Of a DNA stretch of 56,658 nucleotides, positions 4,373-56,658 are shown one piece after another. Below the pieces are notes generated by a model, which ran no database searches, was not told where the DNA came from, and was given only the letters and a program-made list of their open reading frames with translations. The stretch is from Rickettsiales bacterium. GTDB taxonomy: Bacteria > Pseudomonadota > Alphaproteobacteria > Rickettsiales > JABIRX01. Made by a program: the position numbers and the translations under genes. Location of the stretch: contig CBFHSE010000004.1 in assembly GCA_965658435.1 (NCBI GenBank), positions 1 to 56,658 of the forward strand. Direction: 5' to 3'. Every line of letters begins with the position of its first letter. Position 1 is the stretch's first letter.

Positions 4373-6298
4373 ATGTTAGAAGCAAAATTAGCAATATTTC
4401 TTCCTTTAATATCTACTCTTATTAGTAGTTTTTTTGTAAGAGCGGAAAATAGCAAAATAATTCAATATTTATGCAGCACATTAATTGCAGTTTCTGCAGC
4501 TTATTCTTTAATTTTATACAGCCAAATTATAAATAGTGACGTTGTTATTATAAGCAAAATTTTAAATTGGATAAATATTACAGATCTAAAAATTAATTGG
4601 GAAATACAAATAGACAGCTTATCAGCTACCATGTTGGTAGTGATTAATTTAGTATCAGCTATAGTACATTTTTATTCAATAGGCTATATGGAGGGAGAAA
4701 AAAGAGTTAACAGATTTATTTGTTACCTATCATTATTTACATTCTTTATGATAATATTAGTAACCGCTGCAAATTTATTACAATTATTTGTAGGCTGGGA
4801 AGGTGTTGGTTTATGTTCCTATTTGTTAATTGGATATTGGTTTAAAAAAGAATCTGCAAATAAAGCAAGTTTAAAAGCATTCATTACAAACCGTATTGGA
4901 GATTTTGCTTTTATCATAGGAATGTTCGGCATATATAGCCTTTTTGGTTCTCTAAATTTTCTAGATATTTTAGCGCAAACAGAAAATCTAGCTCCTGCAG
5001 AAATTAACATATTTGGTGCAAATTTTAACTATATAGATTTCATAGCAATGACGCTATTCATAGGTTGTATGGGTAAGTCCGCTCAAATTGGTTTACATAT
5101 CTGGCTTCCAGATGCAATGGAAGGGCCAACACCTGTATCTGCATTAATTCATGCAGCAACAATGGTTACAGCAGGAATATTTTTAGTGGTTAGGTTATCT
5201 GGAGTTTTTGAGTTATCTCCATTTACTTTAAATTTTATGACAATTATTGGAGCAATAACATGTATTTTTGCGGCAACTATAGCTATTACCCAAAATGACA
5301 TAAAAAAAGTAATAGCATATTCTACTTGTTCCCAATTAGGTTATATGTTTTTTGCTTGCGGAGTATCGGCTTATGCAGCAGGAATGTTCCACCTAGTAAC
5401 TCATGCCTTCTTTAAGGCATTATTATTCCTAGCGGCTGGTAATGTAATAATTGCGACCCATCATGAACAAGATATGCGCAAAATGGGAGGATTATGGAAA
5501 AAAATACCGTTAACCTATATATTAGTATGGTTTGGTTCATTGGCAATAGCTGGGATACCTCCATTTGCAGGTTATTTTTCCAAAGATGTTATTCTAGAAT
5601 CAGCTTTTATGGCTCATAGTAAATATGGTAATTTTGCCTATATAGTAGGAATTACAGCAGCATTTTTAACAGCTTTTTACTCATGGCGCTTATTATATTT
5701 AACGTTTCATGGCAAGCCAGAACATGAAAAAATACACAAAGTTCCAGCAATAATGAGTTACCCTTTAATCATTCTTGGATGCGGAGCTGTTATTACAGGT
5801 TATTTTGGCTATAAAATATTAGAAATAGTAGATCCAATTTCATATTATTGGGGTAATGCAATTCAGAATTTCCAAGAAGTAAATATATTAAGTAAAATTC
5901 ATCATACTCCACCTCTTATAAAATATTTACCACTAATTTTATCATTATCTGCTATTATTACTGCAACATGTTTTTATATTATTAAACCAGGTTTAGCAAA
6001 AACATGCAAAAATCAATTTCATAAAATTTATCAATTATTTCTTAATAAATGGTATGTCGATGAAATATATCAAAAATACATAATAAACCCATATTTAAAA
6101 TTCGCTGAATTTTCATCGAAAATATTAGATAAAAAAATCATTGATGGTTCATTACCTAATGGTTCAGCTGCAATAACTAGATCGTTATCTAAACTTACAA
6201 GTAAATCTCAAACAGGATTTATATATCACTATGCCTTCACATTTATTATTGGTTTAGTAATATTATTAACTTGGATTATAATTAAAAATATAAGCTAA
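4373..6298 (+). CDS. nuoL: NADH-quinone oxidoreductase subunit L
   Basis: GKSAQIGLHIWLPDAMEGPTPVSALIHAATMV, HAFFKALLFL. Confidence 0.98.
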   Translation: MLEAKLAIFLPLISTLISSFFVRAENSKIIQYLCSTLIAVSAAYSLILYSQIINSDVVIISKILNWINITDLKINWEIQIDSLSATMLVVINLVSAIVHFYSIGYMEGEKRVNRFICYLSLFTFFMIILVTAANLLQLFVGWEGVGLCSYLLIGYWFKKESANKASLKAFITNRIGDFAFIIGMFGIYSLFGSLNFLDILAQTENLAPAEINIFGANFNYIDFIAMTLFIGCMGKSAQIGLHIWLPDAMEGPTPVSALIHAATMVTAGIFLVVRLSGVFELSPFTLNFMTIIGAITCIFAATIAITQNDIKKVIAYSTCSQLGYMFFACGVSAYAAGMFHLVTHAFFKALLFLAAGNVIIATHHEQDMRKMGGLWKKIPLTYILVWFGSLAIAGIPPFAGYFSKDVILESAFMAHSKYGNFAYIVGITAAFLTAFYSWRLLYLTFHGKPEHEKIHKVPAIMSYPLIILGCGAVITGYFGYKILEIVDPISYYWGNAIQNFQEVNILSKIHHTPPLIKYLPLILSLSAIITATCFYIIKPGLAKTCKNQFHKIYQLFLNKWYVDEIYQKYIINPYLKFAEFSSKILDKKIIDGSLPNGSAAITRSLSKLTSKSQTGFIYHYAFTFIIGLVILLTWIIIKNIS

Positions 6299-14176: not shown

Positions 14177-14935
14177 TTACATATTAGGTTCATATATAAT
14201 AATGCAGTTTTGATCCTCTGAGTTAAAATTGTTATAGGAACATGTAATTGGAGTAGAATTATCAAATTTCATTGTAATCCTTCCATAATTTTGATCTCCA
14301 TCATCAAATTTTTTATCAAATAAATATGCTTGGCTATTTGATATCATATTTTCCGATTCTAGTCCTGATAATCCTGTTGATCTACTATTTATTTTAACAT
14401 TACCAATAACAAATAAATTAATTTGCTTACTATAAATATTGGATATGTTATTTTGAAAGAAACTATTAAAATTATTATTGCTACTAGAAAGTTCTGAATA
14501 AGAATTTAAATATAAAAGATAAGAATTAAATGGTAATTTATCATAGTAATAATCTAATTCATCTATCCTAGAATTATAGCTGTCATCAATAAACTCTGCT
14601 AAACTAAGATGTAGCATAACATTACTTACTTCATCTCCAAAGCTGTTGCTTCTTGAAGCTTCCTCTTTATATTCAACCATCCTATCACCGTCGCCATTTC
14701 TTACATTAGAACCAAAATATGCTAGAGCATCATTAAAATCGCCAGGCAATGCATCATATGAGTGATTAAATGCAACAATAGAGCTATCTAAAGAATTTAT
14801 TGCGACCATTAATTTTGATATTTTAGACGATTCAATAATTTTTCTTGCACCAGATAAACCAACAAATAATAATCCGATAATTACAACTACTATAGATAGT
14901 TCTATTAGTGAGAAGGCATTTCTATTTGTAAACAT
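14177..14935 (-). CDS. Type IV pilin-like protein (prepilin cleavage/methylation domain), copy 1
   Basis: Class III signal RNA|FSLIE with Glu+5, hydrophobic helix, LPGD, NGDGD, DKKFDDG, C-terminal Cys pair. Confidence 0.88.
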   Translation of the reverse strand: MFTNRNAFSLIELSIVVVIIGLLFVGLSGARKIIESSKISKLMVAINSLDSSIVAFNHSYDALPGDFNDALAYFGSNVRNGDGDRMVEYKEEASRSNSFGDEVSNVMLHLSLAEFIDDSYNSRIDELDYYYDKLPFNSYLLYLNSYSELSSSNNNFNSFFQNNISNIYSKQINLFVIGNVKINSRSTGLSGLESENMISNSQAYLFDKKFDDGDQNYGRITMKFDNSTPITCSYNNFNSEDQNCIIIYEPNM

Positions 14936-14958
14936 TGTAGTAAGTAAAAAGGGAAATA

Positions 14959-14991
14959 AAAAAGGAGCTTTAAATATTAAAGCTCCTTTTT
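14959..14991. terminator. Bidirectional intrinsic terminator between pilin copies 2 and 1
   Basis: Perfect inverted repeat AAAAAGGAGCTTTAA-ata-TTAAAGCTCCTTTTT, U-tract on both strands. Confidence 0.85.
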
Positions 14992-15012
14992 AACATGACA
15001 AATATAAAATTA

Positions 15013-15780
15013 TTATTTTACAGTGTAAATTAAATTACATCCTAAAGATTCTGAATTAGCTCCTGAAGATAAGTATGCATCAGCTCCATCAGTACATGTA
15101 GAAGCTGTAACATTACCAGTGGCAGAAGTTTCATCTCTAAAAGTTATTCTACCAGATTTAGGTAAGCTATCATCATATTTTTTGTCAATAGTGTAAGCTT
15201 CACGTGGTGTTAAAAAAGCTGAATTAACTCCAGGATCATCTGTAGATCTTGAATTGCTAATATCCTTAGCAACTATAATTACATTTTTATCATTTATAGT
15301 AGGGCTTTGAAAACCAGTTAAAGCTGTTGCTGATGAATCTTTTTGGTTAGAAATCAATAAATGTGCATTTAACTCTGTTTTATAGGCGTATCTTGATTGA
15401 TCAATTTGAGCACTATAATTACCATCAATAAATTCACCACTTTGCATGTGTATTAAAACATTACTAACTTCGTCTCCTAGAGGGTCAGATGAAGTAGCTG
15501 TTGAAGTAATTTCTACCTTACCATCACCATCTCCATTAGCTATCCCTGTGTTTCCCCAAAATGATTGAGCATCATTAAAGTCACCCGGATATGAATCATA
15601 AGCTTGGAAAAAAGCTAAAAAACTTGAATCTATACTAGAAACCTCAGACATAATCTTATTAAGTTTTGCAGCTTGAATTAATTTACCACCGCTAGAAACA
15701 CCAACAAATAGCAAGCCTATTATTATTAAAACTATCGATAATTCAACTAGTGAAAAACCTGATTTATTTTTTTTTGACAT
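15013..15780 (-). CDS. Type IV pilin-like protein, copy 2
   Basis: KSG|FSLVE, YPGDF, NGDGDG, IDKKYDD, C-terminal Cys pair; SD TGAGGT 7 nt upstream. Confidence 0.9.
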   Translation of the reverse strand: MSKKNKSGFSLVELSIVLIIIGLLFVGVSSGGKLIQAAKLNKIMSEVSSIDSSFLAFFQAYDSYPGDFNDAQSFWGNTGIANGDGDGKVEITSTATSSDPLGDEVSNVLIHMQSGEFIDGNYSAQIDQSRYAYKTELNAHLLISNQKDSSATALTGFQSPTINDKNVIIVAKDISNSRSTDDPGVNSAFLTPREAYTIDKKYDDSLPKSGRITFRDETSATGNVTASTCTDGADAYLSSGANSESLGCNLIYTVK

Positions 15781-15817
15781 GATTAATACCTCATCATAAT
15801 TTTAAACATATTTTTTA

Positions 15818-15846
15818 ACTATAACATAGAAATTTAGTTAATGCAA
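15818..15846 (-). promoter_or_regulatory. Putative sigma70 promoter of pilin copy 2
   Basis: TTGCAT-N17-TATAGT with extended -10 TG; TTAACTA-N13-TAGTTAA inverted repeat at 15815-15841 overlaps it. Confidence 0.6.
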
Positions 15847-16600
15847 CTATGAATAATAAAAAACAAATATTATGAAGAAAACTAATATAATCTAGTTGAG
15901 TTAAATAGAAATTTTTAATTATTAGATATATTATAAAAAAGTTATTAAATCCTCTTAGATAATAATTATATACTTATAAAACATGAATTAGAAATAACCT
16001 ATGCAAATATGTTTTTATTAAATCTAATAAATTATATATAAATATAAAATTATATCACTAAAATATAATTAGCTGGCTGATAAAATGAATATATATCTAC
16101 TTTTAATTTAGTAGAGATAAAACAATAATATAAGATTTTCTGTTACAAATTATTAAAAAGCATTACTTTCCAATATTTGATGATATTTAATCAATAATAA
16201 ACAAATTTATTTAAAATATATTAGTATAAATAATTTATCATCAAATGATTTGTACTAAATAAAGTCTTAACCTTATTTTTATCATAATCTTATTGCTGAA
16301 CTTCACAAATATATGATAAGATATCAAATCTTATAAAAGTAAAATTTCCTGAAAAACAATAATCAATGATATATACAAATAGCAGCTGAGAAGGATCTAG
16401 GAAAAGATAAAATATTTCTATAATCAGCATATATAAAATAGTGATTTACTAAAAATATATTTAATATCAAGGTCTATAGATAAAAAATAAAATTTTAATA
16501 TTTTATCAAAAATTGGAATAAAGAAAATTTAATAGAGATCTTAAAAATATATAATAAATTTATAATCTTATTTAAAATATTAAAGTAAAATAATTATATA

Positions 16601-17359
16601 TTATATTTTAATCTTGTGAACTAAGTTACATCCATCATCTTCTGAGGATACATAAATACCAGTAGCTGCATCTGCACAGCTAGAAGGTTCTACATTGCCG
16701 CCAATAGCAGATTCATCTCTAAATGATATTTTTCCAGATATGCCATTTCCATCATCAAATTTATTATCTAAGCTATACATATCTCTTGGTGAAATAAATG
16801 CATTAATTGCACCAGTATCTCCTGTATATCTGGATGATGATACTTCAATGCCCAACATAATCACATTTTTTGATGAAAAAATAGAAGAAAAGCCACCGAG
16901 GGAAGTTCCTGTTGAATCTAACTCATTTAATAAGATCATATTTGAATTCAGCTCACCCTTGAATGCATAATTAGCTGATGATATTGTGGAATCAAAAGTT
17001 CCTTCTATAAGCTCTGCTTTTTGTAAATGAAGCATTGCATTAGAAACTTCGTCATTTGTTGTTGAGCTGGTATTAAGCTCGATTCTTCCATCGCCATCAC
17101 CGTTAGCTAAGCCCGTTGTGCCCCAAAATAAGGTGGCATCTTTAAAATCACCAGGATATGCATCATATGCTTGAAGAAAAGCAAGGATAGAAGTGTCAGT
17201 TGATGATATATCACGCATAATCTTGCTTAATTTTGCTGATTTTATAAGCTTGCTTCCTCCTGAAACACCAGCAAATAATAGTCCAATAATTATTATTACA
17301 ATTGATAATTCTACAAGAGAGAAAGCTGATTTATTACTTATTTTCATTTTGATGTGCAT
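16601..17359 (-). CDS. Type IV pilin-like protein, copy 3 (start may be ATG at 17347)
   Basis: KSA|FSLVE, YPGDF, NGDGDG, LDNKFDDG, C-terminal Cys pair. Confidence 0.9.
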   Translation of the reverse strand: MHIKMKISNKSAFSLVELSIVIIIIGLLFAGVSGGSKLIKSAKLSKIMRDISSTDTSILAFLQAYDAYPGDFKDATLFWGTTGLANGDGDGRIELNTSSTTNDEVSNAMLHLQKAELIEGTFDSTISSANYAFKGELNSNMILLNELDSTGTSLGGFSSIFSSKNVIMLGIEVSSSRYTGDTGAINAFISPRDMYSLDNKFDDGNGISGKISFRDESAIGGNVEPSSCADAATGIYVSSEDDGCNLVHKIKI

Positions 17360-17402
17360 AGAATTTTATTAATGAAAATTAAGATTACGCTCATATAATA
17401 TA

Positions 17403-18152
17403 TTAACGTATTCTCATTTTGTAAGCTAAATTGCATCCATCATTTTCAGAGGCTACATAAACACCTGTTGATGCATCTGAACAAGTAGAAGGTGTTACAT
17501 TACCAGATGCGCTAGTTTCATCTCTAAATGATATTTTTCCAGAAACGCCATTTCCATCATCAAACTTGTTATCAAGGCTATACATGTCACGTGGTGATAT
17601 GAATGCATTAGTTGACCCAGCATCTGTTGCTGATCTAGCAGTAGAAACAGTTCTAGCAAGAAAGATAACATTTTTTCCTGATAAATTAGAAGCAAAACCA
17701 CCAAGAGACGTACCGGTTGAATTAGATTCATTAAGAATCACTAAATTTGAGTTAAGCTCGCTTTTAGAAGCGTAATTTGCATTTGCTATTGTGATATCAA
17801 ATGTACCGTCAATTAATTCTGATTTTTGCAAGTGTAGTAATGCATTAGAAACTTCATCATTTGTAGTTGAAGCGCCATCAATTTCAATTTTTCCATCTCC
17901 ATCTCCATTAGCAACACCTGTTGTCCCCCAATATGATTGCGCGTCTTTAAAGTCACCTGGATAGGAATCATAAGCTTGAAAAAAAGCTAGGAAAGAAGTG
18001 TCCACAGCAGAGATATCACGCATAATCTTGTTAAGCTTTGCGGATTTTATTAGCTTACTTCCTCCGGATACTCCTACAAATAGAAGACCTATTATTATTA
18101 TTACTATCGAAAGCTCTACTAATGAGAAACCTGATTTTTTGTTTTTAGACAT
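17403..18152 (-). CDS. Type IV pilin-like protein, copy 4
   Basis: KSG|FSLVE, YPGDF, NGDGDG, LDNKFDDG, C-terminal Cys pair; SD TGAGGT upstream. Confidence 0.9.
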   Translation of the reverse strand: MSKNKKSGFSLVELSIVIIIIGLLFVGVSGGSKLIKSAKLNKIMRDISAVDTSFLAFFQAYDSYPGDFKDAQSYWGTTGVANGDGDGKIEIDGASTTNDEVSNALLHLQKSELIDGTFDITIANANYASKSELNSNLVILNESNSTGTSLGGFASNLSGKNVIFLARTVSTARSATDAGSTNAFISPRDMYSLDNKFDDGNGVSGKISFRDETSASGNVTPSTCSDASTGVYVASENDGCNLAYKMRIR

Positions 18153-18189
18153 AGTTATAACCTCATCACAATTTAAAACATATAATCAT

Positions 18190-53863: not shown

Positions 53864-54582
53864 GAGGGTATAATTTTGTCGGTAAAAAAACCATCAACAC
53901 CAATTTTTTTATAATCAGAAATTAGATTTTCCTGATTTAAAGTAAAGGCCAAAACCCACAAATCCATATTTTCCTTAATAGCATTAGCAAAACCATTTTT
54001 TGCTTTTTCAAGAGACATGCTTACAGCATAGCAAGCATTATTTTTCAAAAAATCAATTATTTCATTATTAGTTGCTTCAGTTTTATATGTGGCAAAAATT
54101 ATCTTGGAAATACCCAAGCTTTTAATATGTTGATATTCAGCAAAAGAATATATTTGAATAATTAAATTATCTTTTAATTTAGGAGATTTTTTTAATATAT
54201 ACTGACATAATTCAATTATATCAGCATCTTTACTATCAGTAACGATATAACAGTCATTATGATCTTCAAACCATGCAATAATATCATCAAGCGATAATTG
54301 CTGATATCCTCCTATCATTTTATCACTCATAAATTCAGAAAAATTACATTTTCCCTTTTTGCCAAATAATTTATATCTAGTTTCTTCAAAATCATGTAAT
54401 AATATAAATTTGCCATCTTTTGTTTGGCTAATATCAAATTCAATAAAACGAAAGCCATGTTTATAGCTGTTATTTAGAGCTTCTTTGGAATTGCTATAGA
54501 CAAGTTTGTCAATTTGACCGCAAGCATGAGCTATTAAATATGGTTGCATATTAATATTTAATGTTAATTTACTGATAGACAA
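53860..54582 (-). CDS. Glycerophosphodiester phosphodiesterase family protein
   Basis: IAHA.G, NSKEAL, IEFDI..TKDG..LLHD, GVDGFFTD. Confidence 0.85.
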   Translation of the reverse strand: MSISKLTLNINMQPYLIAHACGQIDKLVYSNSKEALNNSYKHGFRFIEFDISQTKDGKFILLHDFEETRYKLFGKKGKCNFSEFMSDKMIGGYQQLSLDDIIAWFEDHNDCYIVTDSKDADIIELCQYILKKSPKLKDNLIIQIYSFAEYQHIKSLGISKIIFATYKTEATNNEIIDFLKNNACYAVSMSLEKAKNGFANAIKENMDLWVLAFTLNQENLISDYKKIGVDGFFTDKIIPS

Positions 54583-54630
54583 TAATGTAATTTTTTTTAT
54601 GATTAAAGTAATTTAATCAATATTTAAGCA

Positions 54631-55629
54631 ATGAAGCAAGTGAATATAGAATTTTCAGATGAATATAAAAAAGATGGTAATTTAAATAGAAATTTTGCTC
54701 TTGAGGCAGTAAGAGTAACTGAATTTGCTGCGTTAAGCTGTAGTAGTTGGATAGGTAAAGGAGAAAAAGAAGCGGCAGATCAGGCGGCAGTAAACGCAAT
54801 GCGTGATTCCTTAAACACTATGGATATAGATGGTACAATAGTAATTGGTGAAGGTGAAAGAGATAAAGCTCCAATGCTTTATATTGGAGAAAAAGTTGGC
54901 ACAGGTAACGGGCCTGCAATAGATATCGCTCTTGATCCTTTAGAAGGGACAGATTTATGTGCAACTGGAAGCCCAAACTCACTTACAGTAATTGCATTTG
55001 CACAAAAAGGTTGTTTTTTACATGCCCCAGATGTTTACATGGATAAAATTGCGGTTGGTAATGGTTTGCCTGAAGGAGTAATAGATTTAGATAATTCCCC
55101 AGAAAAAAATCTAAAAAACTTAGCAAAAGCAAGAAATTGCGAAATATCTGATTTAACAGCAGTTATTTTGAATAGAAAAAGACATGAAGCATTAATAGCA
55201 AAAGTAAGAGAGGCTGGAGCAAGAATAAACCTTATAGCTGATGGAGATGTAGCAGGAATAATATCTACAGCTATACCAAACCCAACAGCTGATATTTATT
55301 TTGGCACAGGTGGTGCGCCAGAAGGAGTATTGGCAGCGGCAGCTCTTCGAGCAACAGGGGGGCAAATGCAAGGAAGGTTAATATTTAATAATGATCAAGC
55401 TCAAATTGATAGAGCAAAAAAAATGGGTATAATCGACTTATCAAAAAAATATGCTCACACAGAAATGGCAAAAGGCGATGTAATGTTTGCTGCAACAGGT
55501 GTAACAGATGGTTTTATGCTTCAAGGTGTAAAGCATAGAAAAGGTAGAAATATTACCCATTCTATAGTTATGCGCTCAGCTACAAGGACTGTTCGTCAAA
55601 TAACTACCGAACAAAACCTAAAAAGCTAA
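54631..55629 (+). CDS. glpX: Class II fructose-1,6-bisphosphatase
   Basis: VIGEGERDKAPML, DPLEGT, GGAPEGVLAA, FAATGVT. Confidence 0.97.
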   Translation: MKQVNIEFSDEYKKDGNLNRNFALEAVRVTEFAALSCSSWIGKGEKEAADQAAVNAMRDSLNTMDIDGTIVIGEGERDKAPMLYIGEKVGTGNGPAIDIALDPLEGTDLCATGSPNSLTVIAFAQKGCFLHAPDVYMDKIAVGNGLPEGVIDLDNSPEKNLKNLAKARNCEISDLTAVILNRKRHEALIAKVREAGARINLIADGDVAGIISTAIPNPTADIYFGTGGAPEGVLAAAALRATGGQMQGRLIFNNDQAQIDRAKKMGIIDLSKKYAHTEMAKGDVMFAATGVTDGFMLQGVKHRKGRNITHSIVMRSATRTVRQITTEQNLKS

Positions 55630-55648
55630 TATTTTATTTAACATTCCC

Positions 55649-55760
55649 TATTTAATAAAACTAAAGCAAGTTTGCATTATTCTTAAAAAAAGTTTGCATT
55701 ATTCTTAAAAAAAGAGTAATATAAAAATATGATGTTTTTTTGAGGTATAAAGCAAGATGA
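55649..55760 (+). repeat. Pilin promoter/leader repeat, copy A (contains an internal 22-bp tandem duplication at 55669-55712)
   Basis: Matches 56569-56658 except for one extra AGTTTGCATTATTCTTAAAAAA unit and one C/T change. Confidence 0.95.
55694..55722 (+). promoter_or_regulatory. Putative sigma70 promoter of pilin copy 5
   Basis: TTGCAT-N17 (contains A7)-TAATAT; SD TGAGGT at 55741. Confidence 0.65.
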
Positions 55761-56545
55761 AAAGAGGATTTAGCTTAGTAGAGTTATCAATAGTAATTAT
55801 AATAATTGGCTTGTTATTTGTTGGAGTTAGCGCGGGCTCTTCGCTTATTCAACAGGCTAAGCTTCGTACAATTATGAATGAAATGAAAAAGATAGAAACT
55901 GCTATTAAAACTTTTGTAGTAGCTTATGATTATTTACCTGGTGATATGCCAAATGCCTATAATATATGGGGAGATGATTGTGGTCCAAATTCATTAGCAG
56001 GAGAAGGATGTAATGGTAATGGTAATGGTAAGATAGGTATAACTGCTGCAAATGGTGCGAAGCCGTCACAAACAGAAAGATATAGATTTTGGCAACATAT
56101 GAGATTAGCTGAAGTAATTGATGGAAGCTTTACAGGTTCAGAAAGTGATGCATGTTTTGAATCTACTACTATTCCTTGTCATAACTCTAATAATAGTTTT
56201 GAATCTAAATTTAGTGATGATGTATTATTTATGTTATTTGATTTTAGTTTTTTTACATCTTATCCAGACTCTTGGAGTACCACTAATATATTTGTTATTG
56301 ATCGAAATAGTGCAAGTCATAATTTGAATGACTCTCCAGCATTTACACCTAAAGAATTATATGATATTGATCAAAAGTTTGATGATGGTTTACCCGAAAA
56401 AGGTACTATTCAATCAGGGAGTAGACAAACTCCTAGTGGTGGATTTGATATGGGATGTAAAACTTTGGATGGTTTAAGTTATATCTTAGATGATTCAGAG
56501 AAACAATGTACGTTATGGTGGATTGATAAAAGGTTATTTAACTAA
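55757..56545 (+). CDS. Type IV pilin-like protein, copy 5
   Basis: MKRG|FSLVE, LPGDM, NGNGNG, FWQHM, IDQKFDDG.P..G; six Cys. Confidence 0.9.
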   Translation: MKRGFSLVELSIVIIIIGLLFVGVSAGSSLIQQAKLRTIMNEMKKIETAIKTFVVAYDYLPGDMPNAYNIWGDDCGPNSLAGEGCNGNGNGKIGITAANGAKPSQTERYRFWQHMRLAEVIDGSFTGSESDACFESTTIPCHNSNNSFESKFSDDVLFMLFDFSFFTSYPDSWSTTNIFVIDRNSASHNLNDSPAFTPKELYDIDQKFDDGLPEKGTIQSGSRQTPSGGFDMGCKTLDGLSYILDDSEKQCTLWWIDKRLFN

Positions 56546-56568
56546 CAACCCTTAAAATTTCGAAAAAA

Positions 56569-56658
56569 TATTTAATAAAACTAAAGCAAGTTTGCATTAT
56601 TTTTAAAAAAAGAGTAATATAAAAATATGATGTTTTTTTGAGGTATAAAGCAAGATGA
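56569..56658 (+). repeat. Pilin promoter/leader repeat, copy B, ending in an ATG (56655) of a probable sixth pilin-like gene cut by the window edge
   Basis: TATTTAATAAAACTAAAGCAAGTTTGCATTATTTTTAAAAAAAGAGTAATAT...TGAGGTATAAAGCAAGATGA. Confidence 0.93.

Follow-up and report, generated by a model that had tools for sequence, protein, structure and literature searches.

Anatomy of the locus

We analysed a 56,658-nucleotide (nt) stretch of DNA (hereafter the window), which is the entire contig C4 (CBFHSE010000004.1) of genome G000, a metagenome bin of 1.38 Mb in 57 contigs with 25–34% G+C per contig; the end of the sequence is therefore the end of the contig. At this end, downstream of glpX, lies a complete gene for a type IV pilin-like protein (unit 1), preceded and followed by nearly the same non-coding block, in what is probably the beginning of a short tandem array of such genes. 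The sequencing runs containing the stretch, X1–X4 among them, are marine metagenomes, and the relatives nearest by glpX carry submitter labels such as "Rickettsiales bacterium." The locus was compared with the sister genome G001 (95% identical to G000 over glpX), with an 18-kb JGI metagenome contig from a close relative (L137), with a second metagenome contig (L138), and with two genomes of a neighbouring genus, g3 (G003 and G007). The features at the end of the window are the following (ORF, open reading frame; aa, amino acids).

54631–55629, plus strand: glpX (class II fructose-1,6-bisphosphatase), the left flank; Pfam PF03320 FBPase_glpX, E 1.1e-133
55649–55760, plus strand: block 1, the non-coding upstream module and start codon of unit 1; starts 19 nt past the glpX stop
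55694–55722, plus strand: promoter-like hexamers TTGCAT, 17 nt, TAATAT (putative promoter); from conservation across seven blocks
55757–56545, plus strand: unit 1 pilin-like ORF, 262 aa; from translation
55757–55870, plus strand: shared 5' coding module of ~37 codons; near-identical between units of different body type
56200–56510, plus strand: hypervariable last third of the unit 1 gene; codes for the C-terminal portion of the globular domain, with Cys234 and Cys251
56511–56568, plus strand: conserved gene end (TGGATTGATAAAAG.TTATTTAA.TAA) and 23-nt spacer; alike in G000, the first unit of L137 (L137_a) and the first L138 gene
56569–56658, plus strand: block 2, the corresponding module for the next unit with its start codon, truncated where the contig stops; starts 23 nt past the pilin stop
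56603–56658, plus strand: exact 56-nt repeat of 55705–55760, the assembly break point; longest exact repeated suffix of the contig

In block 1, TTGCAT (55694–55699) is followed after 17 nt by TAATAT (55717–55722), then by TGAGGT (55741–55746), with GAGG 11 nt ahead of the ATG at 55757. A 22-nt tandem duplication inside this block (55671–55692 and 55693–55714) doubles the TTGCAT box, the duplicate copy of which lies at 55672–55677. Block 2 has the same arrangement, with TTGCAT at 56592–56597, 17 nt, TAATAT at 56615–56620 and ATG at 56655–56657, the last base of the contig being the A at 56658. Apart from the duplication, the two blocks differ by a single base (C 55704 versus T 56602). A sequence-only reading of the window had described a block about 20 nt after the glpX stop, followed by a pilin-like gene, and its recurrence 23 nt past the pilin stop with one mismatch besides the duplication and an ending in ATGA. 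Direct reading and a repeat search agree with this description, the first spacing being 19 nt. The absence of a terminator between the units was also borne out, with 0 terminator-like sites in 55500–56658 (mean of 0.3 in shuffled sequences).

The repetition of the block is far beyond chance. The exact 56-nt repeat begins one base past the only mismatch between the blocks, a position characteristic of a k-mer assembler halted by a repeat; since such an assembler cannot pass an exact repeat, the ending in ATGA reflects the assembly and has no biological cause. The same reading had proposed an assembly break at a multicopy element. The break itself stands, in view of the exact 56-nt repeat and of the contigs of G001, which break at the same module, but a large multicopy array does not: across the whole 1.38-Mb assembly, a query of the 112-nt block matched only the two places on C4 and, over 47 nt (81% identity), one place on another contig. 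The 22-nt duplication appears to be polymorphic, as it was found in block 1 of G000 only and is lacking from all other blocks aligned and from one Logan contig of run X1 (with a loose end at 55692).

The unit 1 protein

The unit 1 protein starts with the prepilin signature MKRG/FSLVELSIV, that is, a short basic leader, Gly at −1, Phe at +1 and Glu at position 5 of the mature protein. Its match to PF07963 was barely over the cut-off (21.8 versus 21.2 bits) and its match to TIGR02532 clearly over it (25.6 versus 16.3 bits). Among 97 homologues, F5, L7 and E9 are invariant or nearly so, and Cys234 and Cys251 are invariant. The AF2 model built from these 97 homologues (pLDDT 89.1, pTM 0.85) has a helix of ~50 residues (7–57) followed by an alpha/beta head. 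A Foldseek search of this model against the PDB returned nothing at E ≤0.001; the best match had E 0.021 (PilA1), and the top rows were type IV pilins. The top four rows of the VIA structure search were Clostridioides difficile PilA1, the type IVb pilin of enterotoxigenic Escherichia coli (ETEC), TcpA and Salmonella Typhi PilS (Z 5.4–5.9); the row after these four pilins had Z 3.6, and PulG was found at Z 3.6. The head domain matched no Pfam family, and residues 60–262 fell only into unnamed clusters of the Atlas. By the criteria that can be tested, the unit 1 protein qualifies as a type IV pilin, and it may be assembled into a filament.

The locus beyond the contig end

In L137 the order of genes is glpX, block, the pilin P0003 (68% identical to the unit 1 protein of G000), block, a second complete pilin, and convergent ilv genes. 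The second pilin is of the type found on another contig of the G000 bin, C42, which is 97% identical to L137 at the nucleotide level from nt 107 on. As L137 spans the orthologues from glpX through C42, it connects the end of C4 with the beginning of C42. Contig L138 contains, in order, a pilin 3' end, a spacer, a block, a complete pilin, a short spacer and a further block at the contig end, and thus at least three units. The array of units predicted from the window alone, with the same upstream block, the same N-terminal start and different bodies, is therefore present in both contigs, with two complete units in L137 and with one partial unit, one complete unit and a further block in L138. In G001, one contig ends after glpX, the block and 31 codons, and another (G001:C42) starts 29 nt upstream of the ATG, inside the leader, and has the same N-terminus followed by a C42-type body; these contigs share an overlap of 114 nt and, as in G000, break at this module. 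According to our analysis, the array is real, short and of differing unit number between strains.

In both genomes of the neighbouring genus, glpX is followed, on the opposite strand and with no pilin gene between, by ilv orthologues of the first complete genes of C42, namely an acetolactate synthase small subunit and a large TPP enzyme. The neighbours of glpX differ in the other three loci examined (G005, G008 and G010). A hidden Markov model (HMM) of 15 G000 paralogues gave 0 matches in 11 glpX loci of relatives (L026–L036), ORF fragments of <50 aa not being scanned. The block pattern occurred in one other contig only of the species-representative genome collection. A pattern search of genome contigs with the unit 1 pilin returned 45 matches, 0 of them confirmed, the peptide patterns being too specific.

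Mosaic identity of the units

The two units of L137 are 96–98% identical over the first ~110 nt of coding sequence and 55–65% identical thereafter, with bodies at ~55%, which agrees with the suggestion of the sequence-only reading that the downstream pilin bodies might be variable. The upstream blocks of these units differ at 4 of 76 positions. Selection at the protein level cannot explain the likeness of the non-coding part. Other G000 paralogues with a near-identical N-terminal peptide have only 82–92% nucleotide identity there. Within a strain, the blocks differ at 1 (G000, read directly), 4 (L137) or 5 (L138) of the 76 positions, compared with 6–13 between lineages; the blocks of G001 and L137 differ at 1–3 positions and look like those of one lineage. 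Strain-specific block variants occur in both blocks of a strain.

The variation between strains is concentrated elsewhere in the gene. First-unit alleles (G000, L137_a and L138) are 85–98% identical over ~450 nt and 33–85%, mostly 40–73%, identical over the last ~300 nt. Beyond this hypervariable part, conservation resumes at the gene end and, in three of four sequences compared, in the spacer; the exception is the second gene of L138, whose end is conserved but whose spacer is much shorter. The flanks of the array are 94.5% (glpX, G000 versus L137) and 97% (ilv side) identical, and the C42-type unit is conserved between strains at 97–98%.

Several sequences combine parts of different units. 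The pilin P0005, encoded on a 61-kb contig, consists of a first-unit N-terminal half and a C42-type C-terminal half joined at the conserved segment RFWQHM; it may have arisen by a deletion through unequal crossing-over, or may be a chimera of the assembly. A contig of X2 joins the shared start to a C42-type body, and a contig of X4 joins 184 nt of a different body to 56519–56568, the conserved gene end. The hybrid gene, the 5'-truncated and frameshifted copy on G000:C42 (see below) and the differing unit numbers point indirectly to recombination between units. The sequence-only reading had suggested that conserved blocks could permit expansion, contraction or swapping of units; recombination as such is indirectly supported by the likeness of blocks by strain, the drop in identity from 96–98% to ~55%, P0005 and the varying unit number, but active swapping within a clone is not.

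The block as a putative promoter

Block 1 was aligned with six other complete blocks and with a partial eighth sequence from G001, from four sources in total. The motifs TTGCA[T/C] and TAATAT are kept in all seven blocks and the 16–17-nt spacer between them varies, a pattern that would fit a promoter. The designation of the block as a promoter in the sequence-only reading was otherwise poorly borne out, this conservation across seven blocks being the only point in its favour. Several observations weigh against it: the named hexamers match the consensus at 7 of 12 positions and are absent from the list of the promoter scan, which instead gives TTAAAA, 17 nt, TATGAT at 55705–55733; furthermore, promoter-like sites are no commoner at the locus than in shuffled sequences (7 versus 6.6). 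The region 55500–56658 had 0 matches in Rfam at E up to 1. Folding of the spacer together with block 2 (z −1.97, mostly A-U pairs) gave no evidence of a structured leader.

Pilus machinery and the paralogue family

Genes for the components of a type IV pilus system are present elsewhere in G000. A prepilin peptidase (Peptidase_A24, PF01478) and a secretin (PF00263) are encoded on contig C45. Contig C39 encodes a PilC-like protein, with T2SSF (PF00482) matched twice in one 413-aa frame, and a PilB-like 583-aa ATPase (PF00437), and contig C12 a PilT-like 354-aa ATPase of the same family; three T2SSE ATPases in the genome scored above the cut-off.

The pilin-like family of G000 comprises ~20 matches to the unit 1 protein. 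A profile of seven paralogues matched 65 of 81 sampled genomes of the order (G000 among them), at most 36 times in any one of them; the genomes with this expansion are of 1.1–3.3 Mb, and in several complete 1.2–2.0-Mb genomes of the order no pilin-like family was found by the paralogue profile. Papers on the evolution of Rickettsiales, in the parts available, note type 4 pili as present in basal lineages or as present or absent (PMC9352585, PMC10847448). The word "pilin" has 0 occurrences in the main text of either of these papers, supplements aside, and the literature searched, likewise without supplements, contained no description of this family expansion or of the array.

Other pilin arrays of G000, at 14180–18185 of the window and as a pair on contig C9, are ordinary repeats of 66–86% identity without a near-identical upstream block, which means that the architecture described here is not general to the family. 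The array at 14180–18185 lies on the minus strand and consists of four tandem paralogues (ORFs at approximately 14180–14935, 15016–15780, 16604–17347 and 17406–18152; repeats of 66–83% nucleotide identity). Just upstream of the tandem pair on C9, at approximately 5668–6100 (L006:863–1294), a 79-nt repeat with inverted ends GTGATT...AAATCAC occurs three times with spacings of 163 and 190 nt, one copy being partly N. Two further paralogues, G000:C6:8124–8879 and G000:C18:20051–20806, have one in-frame TAA each and are likely pseudogenes or assembly errors.

Interpretation and alternatives

Taken together, these results are best explained by a short tandem array of complete type IV pilin-like genes under concerted evolution, rather than by a large multicopy element; we assign this reading a probability of about 0.7. 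The array would lie as an insertion between glpX and a convergent ilvH-ilvB-ilvC cluster, within a single genus of uncultured marine bacteria labelled Rickettsiales. Each unit would consist of a ~90-nt block (probably promoter, leader and ribosome-binding site), ~37 N-terminal codons and a variable body; the shared codons would provide the prepilin leader and the hydrophobic helix that forms the filament core, and units of the first type would additionally close with a conserved tail and spacer. Within a genome, exchange between units, by gene conversion or unequal crossing-over, may homogenize the 5' modules, and the surface-exposed C-terminal third would diverge, or be swapped by recombination, between strains. 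Processing of the pilins would fall to the prepilin peptidase and their assembly to the PilB/PilC/secretin machinery, whose genes lie elsewhere in the genome. The anatomy of the locus, the array in independent contigs, the mosaic pattern of identity and the presence of the machinery are observed; from these we infer that each unit is expressed, that its block has promoter activity and that one of these recombination mechanisms operates. The likely effect would be a set of pilus subunits with different exposed surfaces, affecting the specificity of attachment or permitting escape from phages and grazers.

Several points weigh against this reading. The likeness of blocks within strains comes from three strains and has exceptions (L137_b versus L138_b, 6 differences; L138_b versus G001_C7end, 8), and P0005 could be an assembly chimera. 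As there are ~20 paralogues in each genome, the majority cannot serve as the major pilin, and the same may hold for the unit 1 pilin. The structural Z-scores are middling (<8, a range that, according to the tool, may reflect a common arrangement only), so the assignment of the fold rests on the sequence motif and the model together. In addition, the sequence following block 2 in G000 is absent from the bin. The sole candidate downstream contig, C42, opens with 106 unmatched nt, followed by a 5'-truncated, frameshifted pilin gene, and in this part G000 differs from L137.

The C42-type gene of G000 lacks the block and ~43 codons, and the 106 nt preceding it had chance-level matches only, in G000 and 12 relatives. 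In frame 1 these 106 nt read KLTIST and then a stop, and could be the tail of an unassembled upstream pilin-like gene. The frameshift is due to a G9 run at G000:C42:558, with G8 in G001 and L137 (L038:605; L137 ~8471). No other G/C homopolymer in the 1.38-Mb genome reaches 9; three further G/C runs, each of 8, are in frame in housekeeping-like ORFs. Either slipped-strand switching or a homopolymer error could account for the G9 run. Among the contigs of the bin, none begins with a pilin body able to follow block 2; the contig expected for a pilin body between repeats is far below the length of the smallest one binned (2,114 nt). The Logan contigs of X1 have depths of 18.9 over 55705–56003, 7–8 over the remainder of the gene and 15.4 over block 2; such depths are not copy numbers, and they hint only weakly that the unit following in G000 shares ~300 nt with unit 1. 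Parts left uncovered in X2–X4 are likewise not evidence of absence.

A rival view, in which misassembly or the joining of different strains produced the second block and the genome contains a single pilin gene here, is largely refuted and has only a very slight chance of being correct. G000 is a metagenome bin, and X1 contains two sequence variants at 56074–56195 as well as versions with and without the 22-nt duplication, which would suit such an origin. Against this, gene, spacer and block recur in the same order in both L137 and L138, which are independent contigs, and in X1 one Logan contig of 401 nt matches exactly from 56192, across the stop codon and the spacer, to 56592 at the start of the block; G001, too, breaks at the same place. 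The proteins might, on the other hand, have no part in a pilus, using the class III signal for export or anchoring only, as pseudopilins of a T2SS-like system or as surface binders, with the array diversifying a binding domain. We consider this unlikely. The ~20 paralogues of G000 and the up to 36 matches per genome in relatives are far above the need of a pilus, the C-terminal domain has neither a Pfam family nor a named Atlas cluster, and there is a weak N-terminal match to TIGR01710 GspG (23.5 bits versus a cut-off of 88.85) as well as one homologue named type II secretion system protein by its source. The best structural matches, however, are filament-forming type IV pilins, with PulG lower, the conserved C-terminal Cys pair is typical of pilins, and the 354-aa PilT-like ATPase is present; one paper treats PilT as a signature of retractile type IVa pili that is lacking in type II secretion systems (PMC6060248).

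Programmed variation of the surface, in which expressed units and truncated donors exchange their variable parts at high frequency within a clone and a poly-G run acts as an on/off switch, would function like Neisseria pilE/pilS or Anaplasma msp2, with recombination anchored in the conserved 5' and 3' ends. Such an arrangement seems doubtful here. A hypervariable segment of 300 nt does lie between conserved ends, P0005 has its junction at the internal RFWQHM, the C42 copy is 5'-truncated and without a block, unit number varies by strain, X4 has a different body on the same gene end, and the sole G/C run of ≥9 in the genome is a G9 that is G8 in two relatives. Every difference, however, was seen between strains or samples and none within one clone; a single truncated copy is known, and it lacks 5' homology; there is no G-quadruplex (G4) motif near the locus; and, in contrast to silent cassettes, each unit is a complete gene preceded by a block of its own. 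Moreover, the G9 may be a homopolymer error, and the C42-type unit is conserved (97–98%). In its fullest form, this explanation would make the glpX-ilv interval a dedicated locus for variation of the pilus surface, where full-length, promoter-bearing units and truncated donors swap their hypervariable 3' thirds by homologous recombination within clonal populations, unequal crossing-over changes the number of units and the G8/G9 run serves as a switch. We regard this fuller version with equal doubt; if true, a marine relative of Rickettsiales, free-living or episymbiotic, would possess a contingency locus here.

Significance

The locus shows plainly how repeats deprive metagenome bins of biological content. 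The bodies between identical modules drop out of G000 and G001 and are visible only in a longer contig, and the pilin repertoires of such bins are therefore undercounted. A hypervariable, recombining pilin locus in addition to ~20 paralogues in the 1.38 Mb of an uncultured marine lineage labelled Rickettsiales suggests that the cell surface is a major investment of these small genomes, which probably serves attachment to partners or escape from phages and grazers. Furthermore, the sharp boundary from 96–98% to 55% identity may be used as a marker for gene conversion in natural populations.

Comparison with known systems

The unit 1 protein shares with the type IV pilins C. difficile PilA1, ETEC CofA, Vibrio cholerae TcpA and S. 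Typhi PilS the leader, Glu at +5, the helix, the head, the Cys pair and the accompanying machinery genes. Compared with classical type IVa pilins, its mature form is larger (~258 aa) and its leader is equally short. It differs from the solved pilins in sequence (8–11% identity), in a head domain without a Pfam family, and in the ~20 copies in a genome of 1.38 Mb.

In the pilE/pilS system of Neisseria, one expressed gene is accompanied by promoterless, 5'-truncated silent copies, and a G-quadruplex sequence lies near the expressed gene. The present locus resembles it in the neighbouring pilin sequences, the conserved 5' and variable 3' parts, the evidence of recombination (P0005) and one 5'-truncated copy. 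However, the units described here are complete ORFs with their own block and ATG, and the copy on G000:C42 is the only truncated one; a search for four G or C runs of ≥3 found none in C4 54001–56658, C42 1–1500, L137 5801–9000 or L138. The locus is thus not a pilE/pilS system, in agreement with the sequence-only reading, which had set its layout apart from that of Neisseria pilS cassettes. Integron gene cassettes are each followed by an attC recombination site, with an IntI integrase nearby, and as a rule lack upstream blocks of their own, whereas these units carry them; the inverted repeats in 54000–56658 are weak (73–88%).

In Pseudomonas aeruginosa, the pilA groups are pilin alleles at a fixed chromosomal locus. 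The likeness lies in conserved flanks and a conserved 5' part beside 3' parts that diverge between strains; the difference is that here several tandem units are found and not one gene with accessory genes. The locus also resembles tandem pilA paralogues, for example in Stigmatella aurantiaca, which are called unusual in one paper (PMC6060248) and which are likewise complete head-to-tail pilin genes with conserved N-termini and divergent C-terminal domains. Unlike in these, the upstream region and the first ~110 nt are here 96–98% identical while the bodies are at ~55%, the number of units differs between close strains, and the array lies away from the pilus machinery genes. What the present locus adds is a 5' module, non-coding region included, that evolves in concert.

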